64,000 bases of DNA from a bacterium (lineage in GTDB: Bacteria > Zhuqueibacterota > Zhuqueibacteria > Residuimicrobiales > Krinioviventaceae), in contig CAXXMD010000002.1 in NCBI GenBank assembly GCA_963675755.2, positions 800,001 to 864,000 of the forward strand, in the 5' to 3' direction. The notes below the pieces were generated by a model, which saw nothing but the letters and a program-made list of their open reading frames with translations, was not told where the DNA came from and did no database searches. Positions within the stretch are counted from its first letter, which is position 1; every line of letters begins with the position of its first letter. A program made the translations under genes and the position numbers. Of this stretch, positions 5,615 through 25,763 are shown piece after piece.

Positions 5615-5676
5615 ATCCGCTTTTTTGTTCTATACGTTGATACGAATAAGCATATAAATAGTTACAATTATGTATG

Positions 5677-8451: not shown

Positions 8452-9024
8452 TTATTTACCGGGTTCGGTAAATATTTGAGCAGAAAAAATAAAAATATCC
8501 GCATTTTGATCTTTCCAGGCACTTTCCTTCAACCCTGCTTTTATACAGGTATGCTGTAAAAAAGTTTCAACATCCCACTCATTTTCTGTTGCAACCTGTG
8601 GTAATAAAAGACCTCTACGATAACCTTTTTCAATATAAAGCCCATGTTCACCAATGTGAATCTCTTCAATAGATGATAAGCGGTGCATAGGTGTTAAAAC
8701 TGATATCTCTATTTCCAAATCATCAACTTCATGCTTTTCAACGGGATCAAAGCGAGGATCACGCAATGCAGCAGCTTCTGCCATCTCCATTATCGTTTCA
8801 AGCAATGGTTTAACTGCCTGCACATACCCTATACATCCACGCAGTTGTTTATTTTTATGTAAAGTTACAAATGCACCAAATTTTTCATTAAATACAGTGT
8901 GTTGATAATCTTTATTCATTACAGGACGCTGTTGGTGAGTAACTGCTCCAATAGTTTCTCTGGCAATTTGTAATAATGTTGTTTGTTCTTCAAGACTTAG
9001 AATATCTATTACCTGACTATTCAT
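8452..9024 (-). CDS. amrA: AmmeMemoRadiSam system protein A (AMMECR1 domain), stand-alone, no signal peptide
   Basis: GAFVTLHKNKQLRGCIG, AALRDPRF, EISVLTP, GLLLPQVA, CIKAGL. Confidence 0.92.
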   Translation of the reverse strand: MNSQVIDILSLEEQTTLLQIARETIGAVTHQQRPVMNKDYQHTVFNEKFGAFVTLHKNKQLRGCIGYVQAVKPLLETIMEMAEAAALRDPRFDPVEKHEVDDLEIEISVLTPMHRLSSIEEIHIGEHGLYIEKGYRRGLLLPQVATENEWDVETFLQHTCIKAGLKESAWKDQNADIFIFSAQIFTEPGK

Positions 9025-9050
9025 GATATTCTCCTCTTTTTATATAAATA

Positions 9051-10511
9051 TTATTCTTCAAATACCTGGGTTTTATATACCCAGAATTCTGCTCCATCTT
9101 TCCATGCATTTCGATCCAAGCCGGCTTTTCTGCAAAGACTTGACATTTCTTCATCAACAGTTTTCCAGCCAGCCTCAATAGGCACTTCGGGTAAATATGT
9201 TGCTCGTTTTCCATCCTTTATTAATATAATACCTTGTTTACCCATTTTAAATTCCGTGATTGAATTAATTTTATAGACATTACTCAAATAAACAGATATT
9301 TTGATGTGGATTTTATCAAATTCATCAGGCGTTAGCGGTGCAAACCGCGGATCTCCAAAGGCAGCAGATACAGCCATATGAGGTACAAGTTCATTCAAAG
9401 GACGATCTGATTCATGCTGCCCAATGCAGCCGCGTAACATTCCATCAATGGTTAATGTAACAAAAACACCACGCTTCTCTGTCATCTCATCAGTTTTGGG
9501 TTCAAAAGAAGTCAGTTTTCCCGTTCGCATATAACCCAAAATGCTCTCACGGGCTATTTTTAACAACTCTTTTTGGGTTTCCTGATTAATTGTATGGTAT
9601 TCGATTTTTCCCAAAGTGGATTTTGAAAAAACTATAGCACCATATCCTACAACATATCCTTCTTTAACTCCCATTACATCATTAGAATTGGTTCTAGCCT
9701 GCAAGGTTGCTTTATATTCTCCCATCTGCTGCAAAGCAACCTGCATGATAACTACGGGTGCACCTCCGCAGGCTTGAAATTTATCATTTAACAAACCTTC
9801 ACACAATCGTTTTGGCTTTAAATCCATAATCGCATCAAGTGTATTTTTGTCTGTTTTATTACATTCTTTATAAGATTGTCCATGATATAAATCTGTACTG
9901 GCAACGATTAACACATTTTTATTTTTAACAGTATTAAATATTGCATCCCCAATGGATTTGCATTGTTCCCAATTAAATCCACCTACCACAATGGGTACAA
10001 TAGGAGTTTTAGGAAAAAGTTTCTGAATAAAAGGTAATTGCACTTCTATTGCATGCTCTTCCCTGTGACCCAGGATAGAAAATTGAATGAACTCACTTTT
10101 TTCTACGATTTCATTGGCAACGGATTTGTCTATATTAACATTGCCTAATGGTGTTTCGTACATATCACCATTATATACAGTTGCTCCATAAAAGGGATCG
10201 CGATGACTGGGAGCCATTACGATTATAAAATCATAGGTGTTCCCTTTCAGGCACTTGTATGCCTGTGCAGCGGTTTGGGCAGAAAATCGATACCCTGCAT
10301 GTGGAACCATAATGGCATCAATTTCCCCATCCGGCTTTTGAGCAGGATCTCCCGATAACAATTCATCCAAAAATTCACTTAATTGTAATGGATCTTCAGG
10401 ATAAAAGCTACCGGCAACAGCAGATTTCCGTGTTATATCTGCAAATAAAAAATTTGAATAGAAAAAAAACAAGATTAGAATGAAAGAATAGACCTTTAGT
10501 AAGGTTTTCAT
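9051..10511 (-). CDS. amrB: AmmeMemoRadiSam protein B (Memo) fused to a C-terminal AMMECR1 domain, with a predicted Sec signal peptide
   Basis: Memo motifs RKSAVAGSFYP, VPHAGY, APSH, EEHAIEVQLPF, STDLYH, ACG. C-terminal GVFVTL...LRGCIG...DPRF...TYLPEV...CRKAGL. N-terminus MKTLLKVYSFILILFFFYSNFLFA. Confidence 0.9.
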   Translation of the reverse strand: MKTLLKVYSFILILFFFYSNFLFADITRKSAVAGSFYPEDPLQLSEFLDELLSGDPAQKPDGEIDAIMVPHAGYRFSAQTAAQAYKCLKGNTYDFIIVMAPSHRDPFYGATVYNGDMYETPLGNVNIDKSVANEIVEKSEFIQFSILGHREEHAIEVQLPFIQKLFPKTPIVPIVVGGFNWEQCKSIGDAIFNTVKNKNVLIVASTDLYHGQSYKECNKTDKNTLDAIMDLKPKRLCEGLLNDKFQACGGAPVVIMQVALQQMGEYKATLQARTNSNDVMGVKEGYVVGYGAIVFSKSTLGKIEYHTINQETQKELLKIARESILGYMRTGKLTSFEPKTDEMTEKRGVFVTLTIDGMLRGCIGQHESDRPLNELVPHMAVSAAFGDPRFAPLTPDEFDKIHIKISVYLSNVYKINSITEFKMGKQGIILIKDGKRATYLPEVPIEAGWKTVDEEMSSLCRKAGLDRNAWKDGAEFWVYKTQVFEE

Positions 10512-10575
10512 TTCAGACTCCCAACATATAACATATTATAATATATAGAATATAGGCGATATAGCAAGAAAATTA

Positions 10576-11709
10576 TTATTGCCAAACACCAGCAATAGCT
10601 TGCCCGCAATAAGCGCAATTACCATCATGCATATGATTTTCAGTAACTTTGAAGCCTTTACGTCCAATCAACAATTTTCCGCAATCCGGGCAATAGGTAT
10701 TTTCTCCTTTATCACCAGGTATATTTCCGGTATACACAAATTGTAAACCGCTATCAATACCAATCTGACGAGCGGTTTGTAAGGTTTTTATAGGTGTAGA
10801 TGGCACATTTTTCAAGCGGTATTGTGGATGAAATCTGGAAAAATGTACCGGTGTTTCGGGCCCCAATTCAGAGGCAATCCATTTACACATTTCCGATAAT
10901 TCGTTGGGATCATCATTTTGGCCGGGGATTACAAGATACACAATTTCGGTCCACATATTGTTGTGTTTGAGCAAAACCAACGTATCCAATACCGGACGGA
11001 GCTCTCCTGATACCAACTCTTTATAAAAACGTTCGGTAAATGCTTTTAAATCAATTTTGACCGCATCCAACACCTCAACAAGATCTCGCATTGGCTCTGG
11101 TTTGATATAACCATTAGAGATCATAACACTTTTAATCCCCTTTTCACGCCCCTTAACGGCCGAATCGTACATATATTCTGTAAAGATAACCGGCTCCGTA
11201 TATGTATATGCAATAGATTTACATTGGTAAACATCTGCCAGGTCAGCAACTTTTGTCGGGGACATATCATAATTTCGAATTTGTTCAGGACGAGATTGAG
11301 ATATTTCCCAGTTTTGGCAGAATTTGCAAAACACATTACAACCTGCGGTTGCAATTGAAAATGCCAATGTGCCAGGCAAAAAATGAGACAAGGGCTTTTT
11401 CTCGATAGGATCAACATTAGCTGAACAAGGTTTACCATAGACCAGGGTATAATATGTTCCATTTTGGTTTTCACGAACACCACAATACCCTCTCTCCAAA
11501 TCATCAATTACACATTCACGGGGACACAATTGGCATTGTATTTTACGGTTATCCAGTTTTTTATAATATCTTGCTTCAACAAGCTTAAAGTCTTGCTTCA
11601 AGCTAGCACCATAACCATTTACAGACAAGTTTAAAGCAGTTGAGCATACCCCAAAAGCACAAGCCGAGCAAGTTGTTTTAAGATAATCTCGTCTTGATAT
11701 TTTTTTCAT
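10576..11709 (-). CDS. amrS: AmmeMemoRadiSam system radical SAM enzyme with a twin-arginine signal
   Basis: CQLCPREC...GYCGVR, DPIEKKPLSHF, radical SAM motif GCNVFCKFCQNWEISQ, AYTYTEP, C-terminal CPDCG/CAYCG. N-terminus MKKISRRDYLK. Confidence 0.92.
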   Translation of the reverse strand: MKKISRRDYLKTTCSACAFGVCSTALNLSVNGYGASLKQDFKLVEARYYKKLDNRKIQCQLCPRECVIDDLERGYCGVRENQNGTYYTLVYGKPCSANVDPIEKKPLSHFLPGTLAFSIATAGCNVFCKFCQNWEISQSRPEQIRNYDMSPTKVADLADVYQCKSIAYTYTEPVIFTEYMYDSAVKGREKGIKSVMISNGYIKPEPMRDLVEVLDAVKIDLKAFTERFYKELVSGELRPVLDTLVLLKHNNMWTEIVYLVIPGQNDDPNELSEMCKWIASELGPETPVHFSRFHPQYRLKNVPSTPIKTLQTARQIGIDSGLQFVYTGNIPGDKGENTYCPDCGKLLIGRKGFKVTENHMHDGNCAYCGQAIAGVWQ

Positions 11710-12779: not shown

Positions 12780-15146
12780 TTATCTCAGAAAACGTTCAAC
12801 CAATTTTTTAAATCCGGTTTTGGTAAAATCCGCATCGGCAAAATAATCTGAAGCAAGCTGACTGTTATCCTGAGATGGATTTGCTTGTGGTTCAGGCTCA
12901 ATTTCAGGCGGTTCCGGAGGTTCTGGAATACTAGTGTCAAAAGCTGTTGTATTTTCAGGTGTAGTATTGTATTCAACATTAGCAAGATCATTAAATGTTG
13001 AACCATTTCCGCCTTCGTCTTCTATTTCTTCCTGATTATAATCCTGAATATTGTCATTAACTTCTGTTGGATCATTAAACACAGATTGTTGAACTGTCTG
13101 CACAACAGGTTGGTGTACTACAGGCTCAGTATTGTATGAATGTGAAGAACTGGATAATTTCTGAGGTTCTGCTTTTTGTACCAGTTGAGGAGCCTGAATC
13201 TGCTCTTTAGCTTGAACATACATGACACGGTTATCAATAGCTATTGCAATTTGATTTGCAAGTATTTCCAGGGTATGCAGGGTATCTTTATTTGGCATTC
13301 TGCAATCATTCGGATCATCAGCCATTAAAAATCCAATGATTTTCTCTTCTTTGGACTTTATGGGTACAATGACTACAGCCCAGTTTGGCCAGCCACCTTC
13401 ATAATACTCACCTTCTTCTGAACCATAATAAATGCGTTTTAAATGATCAAATACCGGTTCCTGATTCTGAACCAGATATGATTTGCCTTGTAGATAATCT
13501 TTGCGTAATAATTGACTGTATTCTTTGAGATTATAATTTAATTCCTTGATCTGAGCCAGTTTTATCTTGTCATCACATGCTACGGCTTTGGTTTCAAGCA
13601 TACCACTCTTTTTACTGATCAAGACAAGAGAAACAAGGTTGAAATCCAATGAAAATTTGACTGACCAGACAACTTCTTTGAGTAATTCACTCAAACTGTA
13701 ATACAATTTAAATACATTACTGTTAACCAGAATCTGTTTCATGCGACGGTTGCGACGTTCAAGTGTAGAAATACGATAGTAATTTTCAACCGTAACGGAA
13801 ACCAGCCTGCTGAATAATTCCAGATTGTAAAAAGTGGATTTTGTAGGTGTATTACCTTCACCCGGCTCGTCCAAAGATATATAACCAAAGGTATTGTTGT
13901 TTTTATCAGCAAGATTCAGGATAATCAGGTCACGTTTATGCCATTGTGCAATGGGCGATGTTTCCTGAGAATCATTTTTAACCAGTTCATTATTCAAGTG
14001 ACTTGCTAACTGGCGACGTTCTTTGTTGTGATAAATCACCTTAATGCGAGATTTATCTGCAAATACTTTATCAATAACACGCTGGGGAACTTCAATATTG
14101 TCTTTTGAGGAATTTTCTCGCGCAGAATAACCTACCATTGCCTGTTTTACATATGCATGCTTGCGCGGATCCAAAAGCGCAACGGTTGATCGTTTAAATC
14201 CAAAAACCTGGCATACCAATTCCGAAAGATTTTTTAACAAGACTTCAATAGATTCAGAATAACTACGATGAATGATATCAATTACTTCTGATATCATTTG
14301 TTTTTGATCAACAGTTTTTTGTACTACAAAGGTACCGGAAGATTTTACATGGACTTTGACAAGGTTTCCACGAAATCCAATGACATGATTTTTATCATTA
14401 TCGTCATAAATGAGAGAAATTTGTAATTTTGCAGGTATCTTTTCACCGGTTTTTGCAATAACATACACTTCAAATGACATTGCCGGTTTTTTAATTGCAA
14501 CATTGAGGATCTTGTTGAAAAAATCAGTATCATCAACAGATGCAAGTACATCATCGATAGTTAATTCCAGTAATTCAGCATTAGTATATCCTGCTACATC
14601 TTCAATATATTCATTAGCGGAAAGAAAACGGCGCTTACGGTCACAAACAAAATAACCAATTTCACCACTTTGTACATGCGGGATATCTGTTTCAAGTAAA
14701 TTTTTGGGTTCTTCAACTTCTATAATAGGCAGTTCATCATGAACCGGCATGGGTTCTGGCAAGGGTTCATCGGGATGGACTTTGAACTCGGCTGCTCGTT
14801 TGAGGCTTTCTGATAATGCAGAAAGATAGCCTTTCTTTTTGACAACAAATTCAAAAACACCCAAATTTTGCACATCCTGAAAAATCTGTTCATCATCTTC
14901 ATTTACAGTCAAGATGGTTGGATGAATACGACTGATCTTTTTAAGCGTTTCCGTAAAAGAATCATGATGTCCATTAGCCAGTTCACTGTCAATTAACAAA
15001 ATATCAAATTCTACATTCGTAAACTGTTCCTGCACTTCCTTTAAAGAAGTTGCTCCAATTGGATTATATTCATCATTTTGTACGCTTATGACCTGTCGGG
15101 TTGCTTCTACATATGAGGCATTCGGATGCGCTATTGATATTTTCAT
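12780..15146 (-). CDS. Atypical REC-PAS-GAF-GAF sensory protein with an acidic low-complexity tail and no recognisable output domain
   Basis: REC-like FDILLIDSEL...FEFVVKK; PAS GYFVCDRKRRFLSANEYIEDVAGYTNAELL; two GAFs (..TFGYISLDEP.., ..IIGFLMADDP..LEILANQIAIAIDN). Likely start is ATG 15146 (track start 15200). Confidence 0.75.
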   Translation of the reverse strand: MKISIAHPNASYVEATRQVISVQNDEYNPIGATSLKEVQEQFTNVEFDILLIDSELANGHHDSFTETLKKISRIHPTILTVNEDDEQIFQDVQNLGVFEFVVKKKGYLSALSESLKRAAEFKVHPDEPLPEPMPVHDELPIIEVEEPKNLLETDIPHVQSGEIGYFVCDRKRRFLSANEYIEDVAGYTNAELLELTIDDVLASVDDTDFFNKILNVAIKKPAMSFEVYVIAKTGEKIPAKLQISLIYDDNDKNHVIGFRGNLVKVHVKSSGTFVVQKTVDQKQMISEVIDIIHRSYSESIEVLLKNLSELVCQVFGFKRSTVALLDPRKHAYVKQAMVGYSARENSSKDNIEVPQRVIDKVFADKSRIKVIYHNKERRQLASHLNNELVKNDSQETSPIAQWHKRDLIILNLADKNNNTFGYISLDEPGEGNTPTKSTFYNLELFSRLVSVTVENYYRISTLERRNRRMKQILVNSNVFKLYYSLSELLKEVVWSVKFSLDFNLVSLVLISKKSGMLETKAVACDDKIKLAQIKELNYNLKEYSQLLRKDYLQGKSYLVQNQEPVFDHLKRIYYGSEEGEYYEGGWPNWAVVIVPIKSKEEKIIGFLMADDPNDCRMPNKDTLHTLEILANQIAIAIDNRVMYVQAKEQIQAPQLVQKAEPQKLSSSSHSYNTEPVVHQPVVQTVQQSVFNDPTEVNDNIQDYNQEEIEDEGGNGSTFNDLANVEYNTTPENTTAFDTSIPEPPEPPEIEPEPQANPSQDNSQLASDYFADADFTKTGFKKLVERFLR

Positions 15147-15466
15147 ATTACCTGCTACTCCAATATAATTCAGCAAAAAGCTCTGAAATTCACGAAACAA
15201 TTAACAAAAATTTGTACACATAATCAAGAAAATAGATAATAAATACTGTCGAAAAATGATGTGATTACTTTTTGCCACATTTAAAAGAAAAAATATACAA
15301 TTTTGGGTAATCGCAAATTACATTTTTGAAAAGCATTATTATCATCCATTTACTCATGTTGATTTTTATATACTTAGACATACAATTGTCTGGTTATATT
15401 TAAAACAAAATTAAATCCAACAAACATCCAATTTAAAGCAAAATCCAAGCCAAAAAGAGTATTGAC

Positions 15467-15515: not shown

Positions 15516-16001
15516 TTACTTTCGTAACCGGGATCGTGTATATTCAATTAATCCCCCTGCATCCATTACCATCTGACGTGTGCCGGACAGAGGCTGTATA
15601 TTAAATTCTTTACCAGTAGTCATGTTTAATACTTTATCACCAGAAATATCAAGTTCATGTCCATTTTCAGCATCAATATCTGGTACGGTTATGGTTTGTA
15701 ATCCTAAATTTACTGCATTTTGCAGAAAAATTCTGGCATAGCTTTTGGCAATTACAATCAAATCATGGCCTTTTAAACAGGATGCTGCCTGTTCTCGTGA
15801 TGAACCGCAACCAAAATTTTCTCCACCAACAATAATACTTTTAGCAGTTAACGTTCCACTGTTTAATAAAGTATTAAACGTTTTATCATCTGCAAAGGCA
15901 TATTCAGGAGTCTCTGTAGGTAATACTGTGGCCATAAATCTTCCGGGATATATAGTATCTGTTGATATATCATTGCCAAGTTTATAAACAACTTTGGACA
16001 T
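15516..16001 (-). CDS. Homoaconitase/3-isopropylmalate dehydratase small subunit (LeuD/HacB type)
   Basis: DISTDTIYPGR, GENFGCGSSREQA, AKSYARIFLQNAVNLGL, AGGLIEY. Confidence 0.9.
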   Translation of the reverse strand: MSKVVYKLGNDISTDTIYPGRFMATVLPTETPEYAFADDKTFNTLLNSGTLTAKSIIVGGENFGCGSSREQAASCLKGHDLIVIAKSYARIFLQNAVNLGLQTITVPDIDAENGHELDISGDKVLNMTTGKEFNIQPLSGTRQMVMDAGGLIEYTRSRLRK

Positions 16002-16002
16002 A

Positions 16003-17295
16003 TTAACTCCTTTCCTGACGTGGATCAGTTATTTTACCGGTTATTGCTGATGCGGCAGCCGTTGCAGGTGAACACAAGTACACTTCTGCATTGGGATTTC
16101 CCATTCTGCCTTTAAAGTTGCGATTTGTAGTTGCTAGAGCTACCTCTCCATCAGCAAGTGCTCCCTGATGCACTCCCAGGCAGCATCCACATCCCGGATT
16201 CATGATTACAGCGCCACTTTGTGCAAGCATTTCAAGATAACCTTCCTCCAATGCTTTTCGATATATCTTGCTGGATGCTGGAAAAACCAGCATTCTAACA
16301 TCATTGGCTACTTTTTTGCCCTTTAATATCTTTGCTGCTATTTCTAAATCCTCTAATCTGCCATTTGTACAAGAACCGATTACAATCTGGTCCAGCTTCA
16401 CATTATTAACATTACTAATAGGTTCAACATTATCAACAGTATGGGGACAGGCAATCTGAGGCTCAAGATTGGTTACATCTATATCCACAATCTGCTCGTA
16501 AACAGCATCCTGGTCCGGTGTAACAAAATTCAACTCCCCGGTCACACCCGCTTCCTCACGTAGATACCGTTCTGTTTCCTGATCGGCAGGTACAATACCT
16601 GCGCTGGCACCGGCTTCGACTGACATGTTTGAAATTGTTAATCTGCCTGATACATTCATATTTGAAATAACACTACCATGGTATTCTAAAACTTTGAATG
16701 TTGCACCTTTGGCAGTAATCTTGCCAATTAGATATAATATAATATCTTTGGCAGCTAATGTTTCAGGCATAACCCCATTAATATTGACTTTAATAGTGCC
16801 CGGGACTTCAAGATTCAATAATGTACCCAAACACCACACACTTGCCATTTCCGTTGCTCCAATTCCCATTGAAAAAGCACCTAATGCACCATGGCTGGTC
16901 GTATGCGAATCTGTACCCAAAACTACGTAACCGGGACGAACATAGCCATATTCGGGTAATATTTGATGGCAAATGCCACCTACATCACCCCGGATTTCAT
17001 GAAATTTAGAAACTCCCTGTTCTTTAAGAAAATTTCTAATTTTCTTTTGGTTATTTGCAGTCTTGGAACTTTCTGCGGGCACACGGTGGTCAAATATAAT
17101 TGCAATTTTATCAGGGTCCCAAACTTTTGGAGACAAATCTGTTCCTTTATAAACTTCAAAGAATTGGTTAATAACCAAAGCAGCATTTTCATGAGACATG
17201 GCAAGATCAACAGAAGGCTCAATGATATCACCGGGTTTTACACTTGAAACATTTGCTGCTCTGGCAAGTATTTTTTCTGCAACAGTCATTGCCAT
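16003..17295 (-). CDS. Homoaconitase/3-isopropylmalate dehydratase large subunit (LeuC/HacA type, [4Fe-4S])
   Basis: MTVAEKILARA, FDHRVP, GICHQ, GTDSHT, IGSCTNGR, PGCGCCLG, TNRNFKGRMG. Confidence 0.92.
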   Translation of the reverse strand: MAMTVAEKILARAANVSSVKPGDIIEPSVDLAMSHENAALVINQFFEVYKGTDLSPKVWDPDKIAIIFDHRVPAESSKTANNQKKIRNFLKEQGVSKFHEIRGDVGGICHQILPEYGYVRPGYVVLGTDSHTTSHGALGAFSMGIGATEMASVWCLGTLLNLEVPGTIKVNINGVMPETLAAKDIILYLIGKITAKGATFKVLEYHGSVISNMNVSGRLTISNMSVEAGASAGIVPADQETERYLREEAGVTGELNFVTPDQDAVYEQIVDIDVTNLEPQIACPHTVDNVEPISNVNNVKLDQIVIGSCTNGRLEDLEIAAKILKGKKVANDVRMLVFPASSKIYRKALEEGYLEMLAQSGAVIMNPGCGCCLGVHQGALADGEVALATTNRNFKGRMGNPNAEVYLCSPATAAASAITGKITDPRQERS

Positions 17296-17308: not shown

Positions 17309-18502
17309 TTAAATTATACCTTCTTTATGGAAATTATCAATTTCCTCTCTTGAATACCCCACTTGGCTGAGAAGTTCATGAGTATGTTGGGATAATCTTG
17401 GAGGCGGATTGTCGATATTTGCCGGCGTTTTACTAAATTTAGCTGTGAGATTGAACAGCTTTAACTCACCCAATTCATCATCTGGTACTGATGCTAATGT
17501 TTGACGATGCTGGACTTGATCTGCTGACAATGCATCTTTCAAGGCTAATATATCCCCCGATGGTACTCCTTGAGCATTTAAAAGATCAACCCATTCAACA
17601 GTATCTTTATCAATCAATTTAGCTTCAAGCAATGGAGTAAGAATTCTTCGATTCTTTTTTCTTGTATCTCGCTCCTTAAATCGTGGATCCTCCTGTAATT
17701 CGGGGATTCCCAGAACCTCTGTTACACTGCACCATTGTTCCTGTTTATTTGCGGCAATATTAATATATCCGTCTCTGGTTTTAAATGTTCCTGAAGGTGC
17801 AGCTGTAAAATTATCATTCCCCAACAAGGTAGGAGCTTGACCTCCAATCAACAGATTTGCCGCAACCCATCCCATTAATGGCATTATTGAATCCAGCAAA
17901 GCAATGTCAATAAATTGTCCTTCGCCTGTTCTTTCCCGGTAATACAGGGCAGCCATAATAGCAAAAGCAGCATTCAAACCACCAACGGTATCACATACCG
18001 GGAAACCACATCGCAAAGGATTCAGAGTTTCATCACCATTTACAGACATAACTCCGCTTAGACCCTGAATGATTTGGTCATATGCCGGTTTTAATGCATC
18101 AGGACCGGTTTGTCCGAAACCTGAAATAGCGCAATACACAATTTTAGGATTAATAGATTGAAGTGTATCATAATCAAGACCCAACCGCTTCATAACACCG
18201 GGTCTGAAATTTTCAACAACAACATCTGCTGTTTTTACGAGTTTTTTGAATATCTGTTTGGCATTATCATCCTTAAGATTCAGCGTTAAAGATTTTTTAT
18301 TAGCATTTTGAGCCAAAAAACTGGTGCCCATAAGCTTCTTGTTCAATTCAGGCATACATCCCAATTTCCTGGCCAAATCACCATCTTGAGGGTTTTCAAT
18401 CTTGATAACTTCTGCTCCCAATAATGCCAGGTGTAATGTACCAAACGGGCCAGACAAAACGTTTGTCAAGTCCAATACCCTTGTACCTTTTAATAGACTC
18501 AT
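17309..18502 (-). CDS. Class III (CaiB/BaiF) CoA-transferase
   Basis: RVLDLTNVLSGPF, LGAEVIKIE, NANKKSLTLNLK, DVVVENFRPGVM, ISGFGQTGP, catalytic Asp in PVCDTVGG. Confidence 0.92.
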   Translation of the reverse strand: MSLLKGTRVLDLTNVLSGPFGTLHLALLGAEVIKIENPQDGDLARKLGCMPELNKKLMGTSFLAQNANKKSLTLNLKDDNAKQIFKKLVKTADVVVENFRPGVMKRLGLDYDTLQSINPKIVYCAISGFGQTGPDALKPAYDQIIQGLSGVMSVNGDETLNPLRCGFPVCDTVGGLNAAFAIMAALYYRERTGEGQFIDIALLDSIMPLMGWVAANLLIGGQAPTLLGNDNFTAAPSGTFKTRDGYINIAANKQEQWCSVTEVLGIPELQEDPRFKERDTRKKNRRILTPLLEAKLIDKDTVEWVDLLNAQGVPSGDILALKDALSADQVQHRQTLASVPDDELGELKLFNLTAKFSKTPANIDNPPPRLSQHTHELLSQVGYSREEIDNFHKEGII

Positions 18503-18505
18503 GCT

Positions 18506-19426
18506 TTAATGTTCTCCTTTAAGCACTTCAGGAAACCCTGTTTTATACAATCTACCAGACAAATCTCGTTCAAGTGTTTCAGCAATACCATTTACAAACG
18601 TTACCAACTTTTCAATATCCGGAAGATCACTTTTTCCCATTCGTTTGAACAGATACACCAGATCCTCGGTACAGACATTTCCCGAACTTGTCTTTGTAAA
18701 AGGACAACCACCAAGTCCGCCAAACGCGGTTTCAAAATGCCTTACACCAGATTGAAAAGCAGCATAACAATTTGCTATTCCAGCTCCAAATGTATCGTGA
18801 AAATGGCAGGCACCTTCAATAGCGGAATCTAGTTCATATATTGACGTATAATAATCCTGTACCTGGTCAGGATGTGCATAGCCAGCTGTATCAGCAAGAC
18901 TGATGAAACGAAAACCGGAATCGAGATATGTTTTTACAATATTCATAACCGATTCTTTGGCAATTTTACCCTCAAATCCGCATCCAAAAGCTGATTGAAC
19001 AGATAACTGGACTTTTATACCGTGCTGTTGTGCTTGTTTTGCCATTGCAATAATACGCTTTAAAGCTTCATTGGTATCCATCCCTGTATTTTTCTGACTG
19101 TGTGTTTGACTCGCGGATACACCCATACAAAACAGTTCAACGCCACAAGCTAAACCTCTGTCAAGTCCCCGTTCATTCAAAACCAGACCACTAAAAACGA
19201 TATCCTGAGAATTTAAATCAGAATTATGGACCAATTTGAACAATTCATCAGTATTAGCCATTTGAGGTACTTTGACAGGGTGCACAAACGAACCTAGTTG
19301 TATGGTTTTGATACCGGCTTTAACTAATTTTTTGACCCACATCAATTTTGTCTCAGTTGGCATTGTTTTTTGTTCAATTTGAAGTCCATCACGAAGACCT
19401 ACTTCATGTATAATCACACTTTGCAT
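18506..19426 (-). CDS. HMG-CoA lyase-family (DRE-TIM) 3-hydroxyacyl-CoA lyase
   Basis: EVGLRDGLQ, SFVHPVKVPQMA, SLADTAG, HFHDTFG, GGLGGCPF, GNVCTEDL; 306 aa, no LeuA regulatory domain. Confidence 0.88.
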   Translation of the reverse strand: MQSVIIHEVGLRDGLQIEQKTMPTETKLMWVKKLVKAGIKTIQLGSFVHPVKVPQMANTDELFKLVHNSDLNSQDIVFSGLVLNERGLDRGLACGVELFCMGVSASQTHSQKNTGMDTNEALKRIIAMAKQAQQHGIKVQLSVQSAFGCGFEGKIAKESVMNIVKTYLDSGFRFISLADTAGYAHPDQVQDYYTSIYELDSAIEGACHFHDTFGAGIANCYAAFQSGVRHFETAFGGLGGCPFTKTSSGNVCTEDLVYLFKRMGKSDLPDIEKLVTFVNGIAETLERDLSGRLYKTGFPEVLKGEH

Positions 19427-20532
19427 GCAATTGCCTCTGCCATTTCAGTTGTTGAACTGTTTCCACCCATATCATATGTTCTCACTTTACCTTCTCGAAT
19501 GACATCTGCTACAGCTTTTTCAAGTTTATCTGCCTTTTCCGTTTCACCAAGGTAATCCAGCATTAATTTAGCTGCTAATAACATTGCAATAGGATTCACC
19601 TTGTCCATGCCTGCATATTTGGGTGCGCTACCATGAGTTGGCTCAAAAACAGCATAATTATCACCGATATTGCCACTTGAAGCGAATCCCAATCCACCAA
19701 CCAGTTGCGCTGCAAGATCCGATATAATATCGCCAAACATATTTTCAGCGACCAGCACACCATAGTTTTCAGGATTTTTCACAAGCCACATACACATAGC
19801 ATCGATATTGGTTTCCCACAATTCAATATCCGGATAGTTTTTGGCAACCTCACGAGCACAACGCGTCATTAAACCACCCGTTTCACGCAATACATTGGGT
19901 TTTTCAACCAATGTAACTGTTTTATAACCAAATTTTTGGGCATATTTAAAAGCCTCATTCACAATATTAGTACATCCTTCTTTGGTTACAATACGTGTGG
20001 AAACTGCAATCTCATCGAGTGGAACATTTTCAAACTTTTTCATCTTGGCATTGTTTTGCAAAAGTGTATTGAAAACCTGTTCTGGAAGTGGATGAAACTC
20101 TACACCGGCATAAAGACCTTGTGTGTTTTCACGGAAAACAACCAGGTCAATCCCCTCTTTGTGATTCAATGGATTACCATTATATGCTTTACAGGGACGT
20201 AAATTGGTTCTTAAATTGAACATTTGACGTAATTTCACGATTGGTGAAAAATAATCAAGACCTTTGGATTGTAAATGTAGTGCAAGTTCTTTTGCAGCTT
20301 CGTCTTTAGGTTTTGAAGTTATTGCTCCAAATAGAGCTGCATCTGTTTGTTTTAATATATCTATTGTGCGGTCAGGCAATGGATTTCCTTCGGTTTTCCA
20401 AAATTCCCAACCTATATCACCATGGATGTATTCCGCATCAAGCTCAAGCTTGTTCAGGACGAGTTTGGTCGCATTCATCACATCAATACCAACTCCATCT
20501 CCTGGCAGCCATGCAATTTTATATTTAGCCAT
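19414..20532 (-). CDS. Isocitrate/isopropylmalate dehydrogenase family protein, homoisocitrate dehydrogenase-like
   Basis: PGDGVG, ALFGAITS, YFSPIVKLR, NLRP, FRENTQGLY, NMFGDIISD, FEPTHGSAPKYAG, NPIAMLL. Confidence 0.85.
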   Translation of the reverse strand: MAKYKIAWLPGDGVGIDVMNATKLVLNKLELDAEYIHGDIGWEFWKTEGNPLPDRTIDILKQTDAALFGAITSKPKDEAAKELALHLQSKGLDYFSPIVKLRQMFNLRTNLRPCKAYNGNPLNHKEGIDLVVFRENTQGLYAGVEFHPLPEQVFNTLLQNNAKMKKFENVPLDEIAVSTRIVTKEGCTNIVNEAFKYAQKFGYKTVTLVEKPNVLRETGGLMTRCAREVAKNYPDIELWETNIDAMCMWLVKNPENYGVLVAENMFGDIISDLAAQLVGGLGFASSGNIGDNYAVFEPTHGSAPKYAGMDKVNPIAMLLAAKLMLDYLGETEKADKLEKAVADVIREGKVRTYDMGGNSSTTEMAEAIACKV

Positions 20533-20552: not shown

Positions 20553-21884
20553 TTACATTTCGTCAAAGACCTGTTTTAATATGTCCAAACAGCAGTCAAT
20601 GTGATCTTTTTCAACAACCAATGCTGGTGCAAATCGAATGGAATTGGGTCCACAACCCAAAATGATAAGTCCTTTATAAAAAGCTTTATCTAGTATTTCA
20701 TTTCGTTTTTGGGCATCTGGTTCAAATGATTCGGTATCCTTAATGATCTCAATACCAACCATTAATCCTTTTCCTCTGACATCACCTATAAATGGATATT
20801 CAGCAGCCATTTCATCGAGTCGGGATATGAGATATTCACCCATTTGGGCTGCATTTTCAATTAATTCAGCTTCAAGTAATTCTATAGTCTTTAATGCAGC
20901 CGCACAGGATACGGGATTACCACCAAAAGTTGAAGCATGTGATCCATATGGCCAATTCATAACATCACTTTTTGCAATAATAGCTCCCAGGGGCATGCCG
21001 GAAGCAATTCCTTTGGCAACACAGATAATATCTGGTTCTAAACCATAATGTTCGCTGGCAAAAAACTTGCCTGTTCGTCCCATACCGGCCTGAATTTCAT
21101 CGGCTACAATGAGAAAACCATGTTTTTCAGACAGTTTTTTCAAGCTATCCACATATTCTTTAGGCGGGACAATATATCCACCTTCACCCTGAATAGGTTC
21201 AAAAAATACAGCAGCAACTTCTTCTGGTGGGACCGTTTTTTCAAAAATTGTATTTTCAAGATATTTAACACATTCAAAATGACAGGAACCGTACTTTTGT
21301 CCAAATATACAACGGTAACAATAGGGATAAGGAATATGAGTTACATCTGGCAGCAAGGGAGAAAATCCGGCTTTTTGTACAACTTTACTTCCGGTAAGTG
21401 ACAATGCACCATAAGTACGACCATGAAATGCACCCGTATAAGCCAACAAACGTGTGCGTTTTGTATTATAACGTGCAAGCTTAATAGCAGCTTCAACCGC
21501 TTCTGCACCGGAATTTGTAAAAAACACGCGTTTCCCTGAATTTCCGGGGGCGTTTTCAACCAGCTTTTTAGCCAATTCGGATTGAACTGTATAATAAAAA
21601 TCAGTTCCTGACATATGTAACAGGTTATCTGCCTGATCTTTGATAGCTTGAACGACTTGAGGATGACAATGCCCTGTTGAACAAACAGCAATACCACTGC
21701 AAAAATCGAGAAACTCGTTACCATCTATATCTTCTAAAATTACACCCCTACCCTTTTCAGCAACACAGGGAAAATCACGAGTATAAGAAGGAGAAACATA
21801 TTGATTATCAGTTTCAATAACTTTTTGAGCTTTGGGGCCCGGTAAATCTGTCTTGATATTTGGATATGGATATGGATTGGTCAT
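20553..21884 (-). CDS. Class III PLP omega-aminotransferase (ornithine/lysine/4-aminobutyrate type)
   Basis: LPGPKAQ, FLDFCSGIAV, NSGAEAVEAAIK, AFHGRT, EPIQGEGG, DEIQAGMGRTG, AKGIASG (PLP Lys), STFGGNP. Start moved to ATG 21884 because the track's 22055 start overlaps the upstream gene. Confidence 0.9.
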   Translation of the reverse strand: MTNPYPYPNIKTDLPGPKAQKVIETDNQYVSPSYTRDFPCVAEKGRGVILEDIDGNEFLDFCSGIAVCSTGHCHPQVVQAIKDQADNLLHMSGTDFYYTVQSELAKKLVENAPGNSGKRVFFTNSGAEAVEAAIKLARYNTKRTRLLAYTGAFHGRTYGALSLTGSKVVQKAGFSPLLPDVTHIPYPYCYRCIFGQKYGSCHFECVKYLENTIFEKTVPPEEVAAVFFEPIQGEGGYIVPPKEYVDSLKKLSEKHGFLIVADEIQAGMGRTGKFFASEHYGLEPDIICVAKGIASGMPLGAIIAKSDVMNWPYGSHASTFGGNPVSCAAALKTIELLEAELIENAAQMGEYLISRLDEMAAEYPFIGDVRGKGLMVGIEIIKDTESFEPDAQKRNEILDKAFYKGLIILGCGPNSIRFAPALVVEKDHIDCCLDILKQVFDEM

Positions 21885-21897: not shown

Positions 21898-23442
21898 TCA
21901 ATCAAATTGAATACCCTGCGCAAGAACCGTCTCTTGGCTCCAGTTAATTGTGTTTGTTTGTCTCCGCATATAGCCTTTCCAGGCATCTGATCCGCTCTCA
22001 CGACCACCACCCGTCTCTTTTTCTCCACCAAAAGCGAGTCCAATTTCAGCACCACTTGTTCCCAGGTTTACATTGGCTATTCCACAATCAGAACCGGCAT
22101 AACTAAGGAATGTCTCTGACTCTATCAGATCGTTGGTAAAGATCGATGAACTAAGCCCCTGTGGAACATCATTTTGAATTTCTATTGCATTTTCTATAGT
22201 TCCATCATATTTCAATAGATATAAAATGGGTGCAAATGTTTCTTCCTGAACAATATCCATTGAATTTTCAACCTCAGCAATAGCTGGTTTTACATAACAC
22301 CCACCCGGATATTCACTCTCATTCAAGAGCTCTCCACCATAAATAAGCGTACCGCCCTGTTCACGAATCTGTTGAATTGCTTTTTGCATTGTTTCAACAG
22401 CGGTGGTATCTACCAATGGTCCCATGAGAATATTTTCATCCATAGGATTTCCAATGGTTATACGACTATAATAATCCAACAATAGTGTTTTAAATTTTTC
22501 ATATATGGATTCAGCAACAATAACCCTTCTGGTAGATGTACACCGTTGGCCGGCAGTTCCAACAGCTCCAAATAATACATTTTTAGCTGCAAGTTCCAGA
22601 TCTGCCTTGGGAGTTACTATTATTGCGTTATTACCACCCAATTCAAGTATTGTCTTACCCAGGCGCTCACCAACTGTTTTGGATATATGCTTTCCGAGAC
22701 GAGTAGATCCGGTATAGCTTACTAGATTTACACGTTTATCATAATTTAACAGATCACCAATCTCTGACCCTTTACCTGTTATCAGTGTTGCAATACCTTT
22801 GGGGGCATCATTAGCCTCAAGTACTGCTTCAAGTATTTTTTGACATGCTATGGCAGTCAAGGGGACAGGAGATGCGGGTTTCCATACACATACATCGCCA
22901 CAAACAAGTGCTATGGAAAGATTCCAGCTCCATACAGCAACAGGGAAATTAAAAGCGGAAATGATACCTACAACACCAAGTGGATGCCATTGCTCATACA
23001 TACGATGTTTGGGTCGTTCACTGTGAGTTTGTACTCCATACAGCATTCGTGACTGACCACAGGCATAATCACAAATATCAATCATTTCCTGGACTTCTCC
23101 CCAGCCCTCTTGAATGGATTTACCCATTTCCAGAGTTACCAGTTTGCCTAGTGCGTCTTTTTTCTCACGAAGCGCAACACCCAATTGTCTGACAATTTCT
23201 CCTCTTTTAGGAGCTGGTACTTGTTTCCATTGAGCAAAAGATTGTTGTGCGGAGCGGATAACAATATCATAATCTTCTTTACTTGCTTGTTTTACTTGAG
23301 CAATTCGTTCACCAGTTATGGGTGACAAAACATCAACAACAGTACCGCTTCCAAACCATTTTTCTCCATCAAAAACACCGTCATTAACATCTTTTAAATC
23401 CAGAGCTTTTAATACTTCGGTAATTTCATCCCGGATTTTCAT
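21898..23442 (-). CDS. Aldehyde dehydrogenase family 7 (alpha-aminoadipate semialdehyde / piperideine-6-carboxylate dehydrogenase-like)
   Basis: PAPKRGEIVRQ, GEVQEMIDICD, SERPKHRMYEQWHPLGVVGIISAFNFPVAVWSWN, LELGGNNA, GTAGQRCT, EETFAPILY, SDCGIANVN, SGAEIG.AFGGEKETGGGRESGSDAWK are ALDH7/antiquitin signatures. Confidence 0.92.
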   Translation of the reverse strand: MKIRDEITEVLKALDLKDVNDGVFDGEKWFGSGTVVDVLSPITGERIAQVKQASKEDYDIVIRSAQQSFAQWKQVPAPKRGEIVRQLGVALREKKDALGKLVTLEMGKSIQEGWGEVQEMIDICDYACGQSRMLYGVQTHSERPKHRMYEQWHPLGVVGIISAFNFPVAVWSWNLSIALVCGDVCVWKPASPVPLTAIACQKILEAVLEANDAPKGIATLITGKGSEIGDLLNYDKRVNLVSYTGSTRLGKHISKTVGERLGKTILELGGNNAIIVTPKADLELAAKNVLFGAVGTAGQRCTSTRRVIVAESIYEKFKTLLLDYYSRITIGNPMDENILMGPLVDTTAVETMQKAIQQIREQGGTLIYGGELLNESEYPGGCYVKPAIAEVENSMDIVQEETFAPILYLLKYDGTIENAIEIQNDVPQGLSSSIFTNDLIESETFLSYAGSDCGIANVNLGTSGAEIGLAFGGEKETGGGRESGSDAWKGYMRRQTNTINWSQETVLAQGIQFD

Positions 23443-23452: not shown

Positions 23453-24241
23453 TTATTTTTGATAAATATTTCTCAGAATATGGAAATCATTACCAAAAAT
23501 TGATTTTGCCTGCTCTTCCAGGCGATTTATCAATTTCCAGCTATAAATATCATGTTTGATAAAATCTTTTGCCACACCTACCAGACTTTCATTTGCTGTT
23601 AGTACGCCAATATTGCTTTTTTGATCAGAAATAATGCCCTGTAACAAATAAGAATTATCTACAACCAGTGTAAATTCACGTCCCCCTTTTTCTTTTATCT
23701 TTTCTTCTTCCAAAAGATGATGATAAACCGTTCCAAAATCTAACTCAAGGTTTCCATACTGTACAATCGCAATATTTTTATCCTGCTTTTCTTTTAGCTT
23801 TTCCTGTAAAAGAATCAATTCTTCTTCCCAGCAGAATAAAAGAATCTCATTTTGACAATTTAGTATCAATTCATTGGCTTTATTAATTAAATCTTCCCGA
23901 GAATTAATATCCCAAATATAGTGTGAAGAAATTCCCTTAGCTTCAGGTAGATGCTTTTTCAAAAGATTGATTGATGCAGTAGTATCGTCCTGAAATCGTT
24001 TTAATAATATTTCAATATCTATAGGAATATATTTAACAGGATCTGTTTGTATTGGAGAAATGACAGATTTTTCCAACAGCTTGTTGATTACTTCATAAAC
24101 TTTTGATGGTGGGATCCCGGAACGCTTGGCTAATTCATATCCCGTAATAGGATTTTTTTTAACCAGTGCAACATATGCTTTTGATTCATACTGTGAAAAT
24201 CCAAATCTTGCTAGATTTTCCATAATAATTGATATTGGCAA
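23453..24241 (-). CDS. TrmB-family transcriptional regulator
   Basis: LARFGFSQYESKAYVAL...TGYELAKRSGIPPSKVYEVINKL (TrmB wHTH) plus a C-terminal effector domain; TTG start with GGAG RBS. Confidence 0.88.
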   Translation of the reverse strand: MPISIIMENLARFGFSQYESKAYVALVKKNPITGYELAKRSGIPPSKVYEVINKLLEKSVISPIQTDPVKYIPIDIEILLKRFQDDTTASINLLKKHLPEAKGISSHYIWDINSREDLINKANELILNCQNEILLFCWEEELILLQEKLKEKQDKNIAIVQYGNLELDFGTVYHHLLEEEKIKEKGGREFTLVVDNSYLLQGIISDQKSNIGVLTANESLVGVAKDFIKHDIYSWKLINRLEEQAKSIFGNDFHILRNIYQK

Positions 24242-24255: not shown

Positions 24256-24273
24256 TAACTACCGTTGTAGTTA
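24256..24273. promoter_or_regulatory. Palindromic operator TAACTAC-N4-GTAGTTA (candidate TrmB site)
   Basis: Perfect 7-4-7 inverted repeat between the -10 box and the RBS of the trmB-like gene. Confidence 0.7.
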
Positions 24274-24301
24274 TTATATTAAAAGTTCATAGAATTGTCA
24301 A
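24273..24301 (-). promoter_or_regulatory. Sigma70 promoter of the TrmB operon
   Basis: Minus strand TTGACA (24301-24296), 17 nt spacer, TATAAT (24278-24273): exact consensus. Confidence 0.85.
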
Positions 24302-24330: not shown

Positions 24331-24362
24331 AAAAAAAGGCCGCTATTTAATAATAACGGCCT
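24331..24362 (-). terminator. Intrinsic terminator after the Gfo/Idh/MocA gene
   Basis: Minus strand aggccgttatt-atta-aatagcggcct followed by a T tract. Confidence 0.7.
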
Positions 24363-24378: not shown

Positions 24379-25692
24379 TCAGATATTCTTTGGAACTACA
24401 AAAGGTTCGCGATAATCGCGGGTGAGCATTTCATCGGCTTCGGGATCATTAACAAATCTTTCACTGGAGGGATCAAAATCCAACTGACGTCCCAGGCGAT
24501 AAGAGATATTTCCCAAATGTGCAAGGCCTGATGAAAGATGAGCAGTTTCAACCGGTGCATTCAAAATAGATTTATCGTGAGCACGAACAGCTTTAATAAA
24601 GTTAGCAAAATGATCGCCACCCTCTTTTTTACTTGGGCCAGGTTTTACATCTCTACCTTCACCAATATAGGTTTCATATGTATCATAACCTTTAATTAGC
24701 ATATAGCCTTTAGAACCATAGAAAAGGTTACCTGTACCTACACCATCTTCTTTATTAGTAAACCAGTGTCTAACTTCAACTTCCATAAATTTGTTTTCGT
24801 CAGGCCAATAGTATTGTGAGCTAAGAATTTCAGGTGTTTCTTTGCAATCATCCCACAAAAATTTTCCACCCATGGATGATATCTTGCTTGGCAACCCTAC
24901 ATCTAAACCCCACATACTCATATCAGTTTCGTGAACACCCTGGTTACCAATATCACCATTACCAAAATCCCAATGCCAGTGCCAATTGTAATGAACAATA
25001 TTACGTGAGAATGGGCGTTCCTGAGCAGGTCCTAACCAAAGATCATAATCTAAACCATCAGGTACCGGTTCAAAGCCTTTATCACCAATATCAGGGCGCC
25101 AACGATATATAGTTGCTCTGGACATATAAACATCACCTATCAAACCATCACGCAAATGTTGAACGGCTTCCTGCAAAGCTACAGAACTACGTAATTGAAC
25201 ACCATGTTGAACAATACGATCATATTTTGCTGCAGCTTCAACCATTTTTCGGCCTTCATAAATATTATGAGAACCAGGTTTTTCTACATAAACATCTTTG
25301 CCAGCCTGGCAAGCCCATATAGTAGCAAGTGAATGCCAATGGTTACAGGTTGCTATGCTCACAACATCAATATCTTTATCTTCGTAAACTTTGCGTAAAT
25401 CCTGTTCCAGGGTAACCTTTTTATCATATTCTTCTTTGAAATCTTTGGCTCTTTGATCAAGTACTTTTTGGTCAGGATCGCATAGCGTAACAACTTCTAC
25501 ACCATCCAGGTTCATATACCCTTTAATATGGCTTTTACCTCTTCCATTTACTCCTAAAACAGCTACATTGATTTTATCATTTGCTCCTTTTGCAGCTTTA
25601 GGTAAAATCATAGGGGCAGAAATTGCTGCAGCTGCTGTAATACCTGCAGAACTTTTCATAAAATCACGACGGCTAACCTTTTCTTTTTCCAT
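24379..25692 (-). CDS. Tat-exported Gfo/Idh/MocA oxidoreductase
   Basis: SRRDFMK twin-arginine signal; VAVLGVNGRG, ATCNHWH, GKDVYVEKP, GDIGNQGVH. Confidence 0.9.
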   Translation of the reverse strand: MEKEKVSRRDFMKSSAGITAAAAISAPMILPKAAKGANDKINVAVLGVNGRGKSHIKGYMNLDGVEVVTLCDPDQKVLDQRAKDFKEEYDKKVTLEQDLRKVYEDKDIDVVSIATCNHWHSLATIWACQAGKDVYVEKPGSHNIYEGRKMVEAAAKYDRIVQHGVQLRSSVALQEAVQHLRDGLIGDVYMSRATIYRWRPDIGDKGFEPVPDGLDYDLWLGPAQERPFSRNIVHYNWHWHWDFGNGDIGNQGVHETDMSMWGLDVGLPSKISSMGGKFLWDDCKETPEILSSQYYWPDENKFMEVEVRHWFTNKEDGVGTGNLFYGSKGYMLIKGYDTYETYIGEGRDVKPGPSKKEGGDHFANFIKAVRAHDKSILNAPVETAHLSSGLAHLGNISYRLGRQLDFDPSSERFVNDPEADEMLTRDYREPFVVPKNI

Positions 25693-25763
25693 GGTCAAAA
25701 CCTCAATTTAATAATTATTTATGATTTAATTTATTAATTGAACCGGTTTAATTTTTATAAATT

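Follow-up and report, generated by a model that had tools for sequence, protein, structure and literature searches.

The stretch analysed here, referred to as the window, comprises 64,000 nt of contig CAXXMD010000002.1 (assembly GCA_963675755.2) from a bacterium of the Zhuqueibacterota. It contains an operon in which a gene for an acyl-coenzyme A (CoA) lyase and a gene for a CoA-transferase lie between the genes for a dehydrogenase and the two subunits of a dehydratase. In the first-pass annotation, this pair had been placed at 17309-19426, where a homocitrate synthase would be expected. The span corresponds exactly to two minus-strand open reading frames (ORFs), 18506-19426 (306 aa) and 17309-18502 (397 aa), and the flanking genes are as described there: An Iso_dh-family gene is located upstream and aconitase-family subunits are located downstream. 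We see about an even chance that transferase and lyase act together as a two-step, CoA-dependent homocitrate lyase in a reversed upper α-aminoadipate pathway, which would convert lysine-derived 2-oxoadipate into 2-oxoglutarate and acetyl-CoA. Coordinates are positions in the window unless another locus is named, and all operon genes are on the minus strand.

The operon is a tight string of eight genes with intergenic gaps of -13 to 20 nt. It is preceded by a predicted promoter of the sigma-70 type (24273-24301, minus strand; TTGACA-17-TATAAT, 12 of 12 positions in a consensus scan). The first gene (23453-24241) encodes a 262 aa helix-turn-helix regulator of the TrmB family (Pfam TrmB, 70.2 bits), which is kept at 75-98% identity in the related loci L001, L002 and L004. 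After 10 nt follows the gene for a 514 aa ALDH7-type L-piperideine-6-carboxylate (P6C) / α-aminoadipate-semialdehyde dehydrogenase (21898-23442; NCBIfam NF050084 and PDB matches), and then that for a class III ω-aminotransferase of the ornithine/lysine type (20553-21884, 443 aa; NCBIfam PRK05769). The remaining five genes, here called the module, start with a β-decarboxylating dehydrogenase of the isocitrate/isopropylmalate/homoisocitrate family (19414-20532, 372 aa; Pfam Iso_dh, 303 bits), whose gene shares 13 nt with the start of the lyase gene. The lyase belongs to the HMGL (DRE-TIM) family and the transferase to family III. The large dehydratase subunit is of the archaeal HacA/LeuC type (16003-17295, 430 aa; NCBIfam TIGR01343), the small one of the HacB/LeuD type (15516-16001, 161 aa; profile and alignment) with the specificity loop G-R-F-M-A-T.

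The lyase scores 136.8 bits against PF00682 (HMGL-like), for which the cut-off is 29. The NCBIfam subfamily PRK05692 of 3-hydroxy-3-methylglutaryl-CoA (HMG-CoA) lyases is passed marginally (255.6 bits, cut-off 246). All NCBIfam models for homocitrate, isopropylmalate and citramalate synthases score far below their cut-offs, among them the homocitrate synthase models TIGR02146 (84 against 413.55 bits) and TIGR02660 (65.7 against 462.9 bits). Judged by these scores, the lyase is related to homocitrate synthase (LysS/NifV) by fold only. HMG-CoA lyase structures match it at E values of 5e-54 to 7e-36. The motifs quoted in the first-pass annotation, R12-D13-G14, H208-x-H210 and G239-G240-C241-P242, are all present and do not vary among the 68 module lyases aligned. 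R12, D13, H208, H210, N250 and C241, each found in all 68, align with human R41, D42, H233, H235, N275 and C266. We take R41 and D42 to be catalytic, H233, H235 and N275 to be metal ligands and C266 to be the loop Cys. The Asp-Arg-Glu signature itself is broken: Its Glu, by alignment human E72 and presumably the signature residue there, is kept in three aligned HMG-CoA lyase structures, whereas the window's lyase has Gln43 and each of the 68 module lyases a Gln in its place.

For a tree of 104 rows, 30 of 67 module lyases were drawn at random and combined with the window's lyase, 70 other HMGL-like proteins, one paralogue and a LeuA/CimA outgroup. A single clade (SH-aLRT 100) contains 30 of the 31 module rows. 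The remaining row, L167, has a terminal branch of 10, and its ORF was probably called wrongly. The alignment revealed 23 positions specific for the clade, from which substrate specificity is not readable. A separate observation concerns locus L084 (G000:C1:141000-155000), where AcnA and an isocitrate dehydrogenase (IDH)-like gene (266 against 509 bits) adjoin a 455 aa DRE-TIM ORF. This ORF matches PF00682 with 105 bits and no NCBIfam family at E 1e-60.

The match of the transferase to CoA_transf_3 (PF02515) is full-length (405.5 bits, profile positions 1-366 of 366). It stays below every NCBIfam equivalog with known substrate: succinate-glutarate (299 against 750 bits), succinyl-CoA:mesaconate (257 against 700), formyl-CoA (256 against 442) and oxalate (255 against 522). 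Its closest solved relative is human SUGCT, a succinate-hydroxymethylglutarate CoA-transferase (E 5e-79). The Asp motif pointed out in the first-pass annotation, V-C-D171-T-V-G, was found and is invariant in 77 of 77 module transferases. D171 aligns with an Asp of SUGCT, and the equivalent Asp is presumably the catalytic residue of family III transferases. A search of the window's genome with the window's transferase as query yielded no second family III transferase.

Taken literally, the database names would mean a function without relation to the neighbouring genes, namely activation of free 3-hydroxy-3-methylglutarate (HMG) or glutarate and cleavage of HMG-CoA. The best PDB relatives, SUGCT and HMG-CoA lyases, and the PRK05692 score just over the cut-off are in line with these names. 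We nevertheless regard this as highly improbable. In most loci, the pair lies between dehydrogenase and dehydratase genes, the module lyases form a separate clade with the Glu to Gln exchange in 68 of 68, and all transferase equivalogs score far below their cut-offs. In addition, aconitase-family enzymes isomerise 2-hydroxy acids of a kind to which HMG does not belong.

For the dehydrogenase, the best NCBIfam match is the AksF2 homoisocitrate dehydrogenase (345.9 bits, below the cut-off of 540) and the best PDB match is Thermus homoisocitrate dehydrogenase (HICDH; E 7e-66). In the alignment, the helix facing the γ-substituent reads Y-[R/F]-S-P-I-V-[R/K]-[M/L]-R in the module. The corresponding helix in the genome's own LeuB is E-R-G-L-L-G-L-R and that in its IDH-like protein is S-A-N-V-A-M-R. 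Ser72 of Thermus HICDH has a Ser counterpart in the module enzyme, which also keeps a conserved basic residue (Lys here, Arg in most). It has neither the Asn of IDH nor the Glu/Leu-Leu of isopropylmalate dehydrogenase (IPMDH); Ile-Val is found where IPMDH has Leu-Leu. Ser72 and Arg85 of Thermus HICDH are assumed to bind the distal carboxylate; a literature search on Arg85 yielded no usable result. In its cofactor motif, APKYAG, the module dehydrogenase agrees with isocitrate dehydrogenase structures from Thermus and Archaeoglobus, which we take to be NADP-dependent; Thermus HICDH has APDIAG. APKY occurs in every listed variant among 64 module dehydrogenase rows. Such an NADP-type motif fits the direction of reductive carboxylation.

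The large dehydratase subunit is assigned to the hacA family at the subfamily level (TIGR01343, 528.2 bits, cut-off 385.7) and stays below the cut-off for HacA_Meth (504.2 against 550 bits). The small subunit reaches 102-109 bits with the HacB equivalogs, whose cut-off is 230. Its specificity loop is G-R-[F/Y]-M-A-T in 61 of 65 aligned rows. The corresponding loops are YLRT in methanogen homoaconitase (2pkp), YLVY in methanogen isopropylmalate isomerase (3vba) and YNLT in a Pyrococcus protein (1v7l).

The two genes preceding the module in the operon connect it to lysine. The ALDH7-type protein passes the NF050084 equivalog (781.1 against 730 bits) and matches structures of human ALDH7A1 (4x0t, E 2.2e-162) and Pcd (E 4e-161). 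The aminotransferase passes PRK05769 (645.8 against 552 bits) and does not belong to LAT_fam, the L-lysine 6-transaminases (TIGR03251, 197 against 520.8 bits). Its start was taken as the ATG at 21884; a longer ORF from a GTG at 22055 would overlap the preceding gene. The closest solved relative is 7vno (E 1.6e-129), which we take to be Pyrococcus PH1423. The archaeal ornithine/lysine ω-aminotransferases PH1423 and TK2101 presumably belong to the PRK05769 family. In a table of PMC9986279, PH1423 and Thermococcus TK2101 (archaeal class II) are listed as ornithine ω-aminotransferases that also use L-Lys, and TK2101 is listed as accepting 2-oxoadipate as amino acceptor. With this substrate range, a single enzyme of the PRK05769 family could serve both transaminations on the way from lysine to 2-oxoadipate.

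The distribution of the module was determined with two queries. With the lyase, 152 relatives were found and the best 80 kept. Among these 80, ten loci have 54-85% identity and the next ones at most 45%. According to tblastn with the operon proteins, the ten close loci fall into three groups. The full set of lysine genes and module is present in L001-L004 (61-98% identity), which represent four further species-level genomes. Two loci from Ignavibacteria contain the five-gene module without the lysine genes, and four loci from Acidobacteriota/Thermoanaerobaculia contain the lyase-transferase pair alone. One of these pair-only Thermoanaerobaculia genomes encodes the dehydrogenase and both dehydratase subunits together at another site (59-66% identity). 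With the transferase, at least 505 relatives were found; the best 80, all 72-79% identical, were examined, and a module gene was counted as present if it matched over at least 100 aa with at least 40% identity. In these best 80 loci, many of which end at contig edges, the lyase is present in 72, HacA in 61, the dehydrogenase in 60 and HacB in 59. The order dehydrogenase-lyase-transferase-HacA-HacB is almost always the same. It recurs in dozens of species-level genomes, which argues against a chance arrangement. These are metagenome-assembled genomes (MAGs) labelled as more than 10 phyla: Ignavibacteriota, Bacteroidota, Chlorobi, Kapabacteria, Calditrichaeota, Acidobacteriota, Aminicenantes, Chloroflexota and Planctomycetota as well as Opitutales, Gemmatimonadales, Eisenbacteria, Fischerbacteria, Chrysiogenales, KSB1, UBP2 and others; some of these labels may be incorrect. 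When the ORFs of 83 loci were clustered all against all, no further neighbour gene emerged that is widely shared beyond single lineages.

In 7 of the 83 loci (L116, 9083-11188; L126, L130, L143, L144, L150 and L154), two of them labelled UBP2, lyase and transferase are fused to an ORF of about 701 aa. Probably, these seven represent one lineage. Natural fusions speak for a coupling of the two enzymes. More distant pairs were also observed, at L018:2995-10124 (37-40% identity) and L046:2019-10139 (32%). They are located with aconitase-family genes, TctA/TctC or CitMHS transporter genes, PrpD and PrpF. They may be analogous lyases for other tricarboxylates, and two-enzyme, CoA-dependent cleavage of hydroxy-tricarboxylates could be a wider theme.

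A second link to lysine was found in genome G174, a low-GC Bacteroidota (L168; C6:524000-543000). There, a KGSADH-like aldehyde dehydrogenase (ALDH), a true L-lysine 6-transaminase (646 against 520.8 bits) and a transferase orthologue (67%) form one string, and a divergently oriented lyase orthologue (54%) adjoins the transaminase-transferase string. The dehydrogenase orthologue (60%) is encoded elsewhere beside a fused 665 aa aconitase-type gene, and the canonical leu operon is separate. This link is independent of the operon in the window and is built from different gene families. The cluster adjoins genes for a trans-4-hydroxy-L-proline dehydratase (1326 against 1100 bits), an Xaa-Pro peptidase and a 1-pyrroline-5-carboxylate (P5C) dehydrogenase, and from its gene content it looks like an amino-acid catabolic island. 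A looser link exists in two Acidobacteriota loci (L157 and L167), where a true lysine 6-transaminase is encoded about 4 kb upstream of the module with unrelated genes in between.

What the window's genome (98% complete by tool estimate) encodes elsewhere narrows the choice of substrate. LeuA (793 against 532 bits) and CimA (760 against 450) are encoded beside LeuB, LeuCD is present, and citrate synthase, AcnA and an IDH-like gene were found, too. These separate genes rule out that the module is the genome's only set for leucine, citramalate or citrate. Of the four classical 2-oxoacid elongation chemistries, only that of homocitrate is without its own synthase in this genome. No 2-oxoacid dehydrogenase E1, the usual route for 2-oxoadipate, was found in it. 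DapF is present (242 against 114.65 bits) and two LysA-like genes are located within about 9 kb, while LysX was not found in this genome (best match 71 against 275.6 bits). The absence of LysX and the presence of DapF rule out a function in lysine biosynthesis of the aminoadipate type.

The first-pass annotation had left open a homocitrate lyase or a CoA-conserving synthase, a proposal that the data support in part. Homocitrate as the substrate is favoured by the lysine genes in the operon (ALDH7 and the ornithine/lysine-type aminotransferase), by the lysine 6-transaminase of G174 and by the genome's own LeuA, CimA and citrate synthase. As to direction, the synthase is disfavoured, because DapF is present, LysX was not found, the ALDH7 enzyme oxidises an aldehyde and the dehydrogenase is of the NADP type; all four argue for the catabolic direction. 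In the biosynthetic alternative, the lyase would condense acetyl-CoA with 2-oxoglutarate (or oxaloacetate) and the transferase would hand on the CoA, so that 2-oxoadipate (or 2-oxoglutarate) is made without loss of the thioester. The reactions are chemically reversible, and the conservation of the transferase, 72-79% across phyla among the best 80 of at least 505 relatives, looks like that of a core function. Still, we rate this alternative as very unlikely: LysX was not found in any of the five genomes searched and DapF is above the cut-off in four of them, the operon's ALDH7 would make 2-aminoadipate from lysine, and the dehydrogenase is NADP-type. In addition, separate genes for citrate synthase, AcnA and an IDH-like protein are present in the genome, and the module dehydrogenase is without the Asn of isocitrate dehydrogenases.

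For the homocitrate lyase, the following route is proposed. Substrate, CoA donor, direction and stoichiometry are predictions from gene families and gene context. The ω-aminotransferase would convert lysine into aminoadipate semialdehyde, which the ALDH7 enzyme would oxidise to 2-aminoadipate with formation of NAD(P)H. A transaminase, possibly the same ω-aminotransferase, would yield 2-oxoadipate. The NADP-type dehydrogenase would carboxylate 2-oxoadipate reversibly with CO2 and NADPH to homoisocitrate, and the HacAB-like dehydratase would isomerise this via cis-homoaconitate to homocitrate. The family III transferase would then transfer CoA, probably from succinyl-CoA and possibly from acetyl-CoA, reversibly to homocitrate, so that homocitryl-CoA and the free acid are formed; succinyl-CoA is a guess from the nearest relatives of the transferase. 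Finally, the HMGL-type lyase would split homocitryl-CoA reversibly into acetyl-CoA and 2-oxoglutarate, and the latter could be recycled to the transaminations. In sum, lysine, 2-oxoglutarate and CO2 would give 2 glutamate and one acetyl unit in a redox-neutral way, with the thioester kept. A two-enzyme, thioester-conserving replacement for a synthase of the homocitrate/isopropylmalate/citramalate type fits every test run.

Several observations weigh against homocitrate as substrate. Reductive carboxylation by isocitrate dehydrogenase is thermodynamically uphill; by analogy, that of 2-oxoadipate would be uphill as well and downstream steps would have to pull. The lyase gains no basic residue relative to other HMGL-like proteins. 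At the position of Thermus HICDH Arg85, the dehydrogenase has Val, the next residue being the conserved Lys/Arg. The loop of the small subunit shares the Thr of methanogen homoaconitase YLRT and is without its Arg. Thus, the residues that we assume to recognise homoisocitrate and homoaconitate in the Thermus and methanogen enzymes are not conserved in the module.

This touches on a citramalate-type module, in which a succinyl-CoA:(R)-citramalate CoA-transferase and an (R)-citramalyl-CoA lyase would, with LeuCD- and LeuB-like enzymes, link pyruvate and acetyl-CoA reversibly with 2-oxobutyrate. The absent Arg in the loop and the Ile-Val in place of the IPMDH Leu-Leu would suit it. Furthermore, we take the closest characterised two-enzyme precedent, from Chloroflexus, to comprise the same two protein families. 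CimA of the TIGR00977 type was found in 14 of 50 module genomes and not in the other 36; the latter would leave room for such a module, while the former argue against a simple replacement of CimA in these 14 genomes and say little on the others. The window's genome, too, has its own CimA. The conserved Ser and Arg/Lys at the γ-moiety site of the dehydrogenase argue against citramalate, and neither the operon link to an aminoadipate-semialdehyde dehydrogenase and a lysine-type aminotransferase nor the transaminase-transferase string of G174 would be explained. Moreover, Ignavibacteria relatives are reported in PMC6338057 to be without isoleucine or valine synthesis. On balance, a citramalate function is unlikely.

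A second group of objections to the homocitrate lyase comes from the distribution data. Only 2 of the best 80 transferase loci carry aminotransferase and ALDH7 genes of the window's types, and most module genomes have no lysine genes next to the module. An ALDH7-type P6C dehydrogenase is above the cut-off in one of five other module genomes. In 9 loci from Ignavibacteria/Bacteroidota, a three-subunit 2-oxoacid:ferredoxin oxidoreductase of the VorB type (561 against 399 bits) is encoded directly upstream of the module, and 4 of these 9 also have an upstream gene resembling butyryl-CoA:acetate transferases, which hints at branched-chain acids. One of the nine is L090, with the oxidoreductase genes at 2649-6834.

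A module for shortening or elongation of broad or branched-chain 2-oxoacids would act on 2-isopropylmalate (2-oxoisocaproate to and from 2-oxoisovalerate and acetyl-CoA) or on several alkylmalates, with lysine as one of several uses. The oxidoreductase and transferase genes upstream would agree with this, and a wider pocket could result from the small Ala of the specificity loop. In the Ignavibacteria genomes G001 and G002, neither a LeuA-type synthase nor a second LeuC was found. According to PMC6338057, a relative of the Ignavibacteria has genes of the leucine pathway and no isopropylmalate synthase, an observation that would also fit a mis-annotation of module genes as leucine-pathway enzymes. 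On the other hand, all nine VorB loci are of the Ignavibacteria/Bacteroidota type and may reflect one lineage-specific synteny, the dehydrogenase is without the Glu/Leu-Leu signature of the genome's own LeuB, and a full canonical set of leu genes is present in the window's genome. A branched-chain or broad function is therefore rather improbable. The rest of the probability falls to other explanations.

Of 50 module genomes, 26 encode a true lysine 6-transaminase, and so do 79 of 151 sampled Bacteroidota. By this count there is no enrichment, which is a further point against the homocitrate lyase. Compared with 0 of 14 control genomes, the 26 of 50 had looked striking; the Bacteroidota background removes the effect, and enrichment was dropped as support. 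All five transferase-positive genomes in the sample of 151 are also transaminase-positive, a weakly significant result (one-sided about 0.04, hypergeometric, uncorrected for kinship), three of the five having been in the set before. The idea that Ignavibacteria are without aminoadipate-semialdehyde dehydrogenase was dropped, too. It holds for the ALDH7 equivalog, but they carry a KGSADH-like ALDH, the type located next to the G174 transaminase, so that an absence of the activity cannot be claimed.

Known routes of 2-oxoadipate proceed via glutaryl-CoA or 2-hydroxyglutarate. The term homocitryl-CoA was not found in the literature searched, and neither was a description of the module or of a route from lysine to homocitrate; supplements were outside the scope of this search. 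To that extent, the claim of a new activity made in the first-pass annotation holds. The enzyme families and the logic of a two-step lyase are already known; new would be substrate, direction and pathway. We consider it slightly less than an even bet that many uncultured, mostly anaerobic phyla have a hitherto undescribed lysine/2-oxoadipate route, in which a reversed upper aminoadipate pathway with NADPH-dependent carboxylation and a two-enzyme homocitrate lyase yields 2 glutamate and 1 acetyl-CoA without net redox change and with the thioester preserved. The window contributes the operon-level link of the module to ALDH7 and an ornithine/lysine aminotransferase, and G174 contributes an independent transaminase-transferase string.

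If the homocitrate lyase is real, it would represent a new branch of lysine catabolism and assign a function to a five-gene operon which, of the metabolic modules still without an assignment, is one of the better conserved in uncultured bacteria from sediment, soil and sludge. An elongation of 2-oxoacids that textbooks treat as 'irreversible' would become reversible and energy-saving, with a lyase and a CoA-transferase in place of a hydrolysing synthase. A reversible module could serve as a general device for shortening 2-oxoacids. Routine annotations as HMG-CoA lyase, CaiB/BaiF-type transferase and leucine-pathway enzymes would have to be corrected, and the enzymes might be useful for engineered adipate, glutarate or chain-length-editing pathways.

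The surroundings of the operon contain further genes, all on the minus strand. Directly downstream, at 12780-15200, an 806 aa PAS/GAF regulator with weak likeness to NifA is encoded, which has 92% identity in L001. In 6 other loci, too, genes for sigma-54 activators are found no more than a few kb from the module. Upstream, at 24379-25698, an oxidoreductase of the GFO/IDH/MocA family with a twin-arginine translocation (TAT) signal is encoded. It shows weak likeness to the Bacteroides glycoside 3-dehydrogenase family (170 against 750 bits). A strong, terminator-like hairpin at the end of this gene (24337-24362) precedes the promoter-like site of the operon. Three consecutive genes at 8452-11709 encode AMMECR1, a Memo-AMMECR1 fusion and a radical SAM protein; we take this trio to be the uncharacterised 'AmmeMemoRadiSam' system. 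A tandem pair of large genes at 3524-8061 encodes SpoIIE-type phosphatases, one of which contains a GAF domain.

Compared with known systems, the proposed route shares its dehydratase and dehydrogenase families and its proposed intermediates with the upper α-aminoadipate pathway (homocitrate synthase, homoaconitase LysT/U or HacAB, HICDH). It differs by having no synthase, by the reversed proposed direction, by the NADP-type motif, by the absence of Arg85 and of the Arg in YLRT, and in that no later steps of the LysX type were found. The module transferase is not an orthologue of human SUGCT (PDB 9br6/9br7), the closest solved relative with an aligned Asp, as the succinate-glutarate score of 299 against 750 bits indicates, and its proposed substrate is another one. 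SUGCT is a dicarboxylate CoA-transferase tied to mammalian lysine catabolism. With HMG-CoA lyases (human HMGCL, Bacillus YngG and Pseudomonas LiuE; PDB 2cw6, 1ydo, 2ftp), the module lyase has the fold, the Arg-Asp, His-x-His and Asn residues and the Cys of GGCP in common (E values of 1e-42 to 1e-54), whereas the signature Glu is exchanged for Gln, the clade is separate and there is no leucine-catabolic context.

CitDEF-type citrate/citramalate lyase complexes follow the same logic: The hydroxy acid is converted to its thioester by acyl exchange, after which a lyase frees the 2-oxoacid. They use families of their own, CitF and CitE, together with an acyl carrier subunit, whereas the module combines a family III transferase with a DRE-TIM lyase and is predicted to work with free CoA esters. 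Closest in kind is the citramalate pair of Chloroflexus aurantiacus. Its succinyl-CoA:(R)-citramalate CoA-transferase and (R)-citramalyl-CoA lyase, reportedly described by Friedmann et al. in 2006/2007, are said to cleave a 2-hydroxy-2-substituted dicarboxylate to acetyl-CoA and a 2-oxoacid. At the level of protein families, both systems consist of a family III CoA-transferase and an HMGL-family lyase. The module differs from the Chloroflexus pair by its operon with dehydrogenase and dehydratase genes, by the lysine operon in the window's clade and by the C7 tricarboxylate proposed as its substrate.

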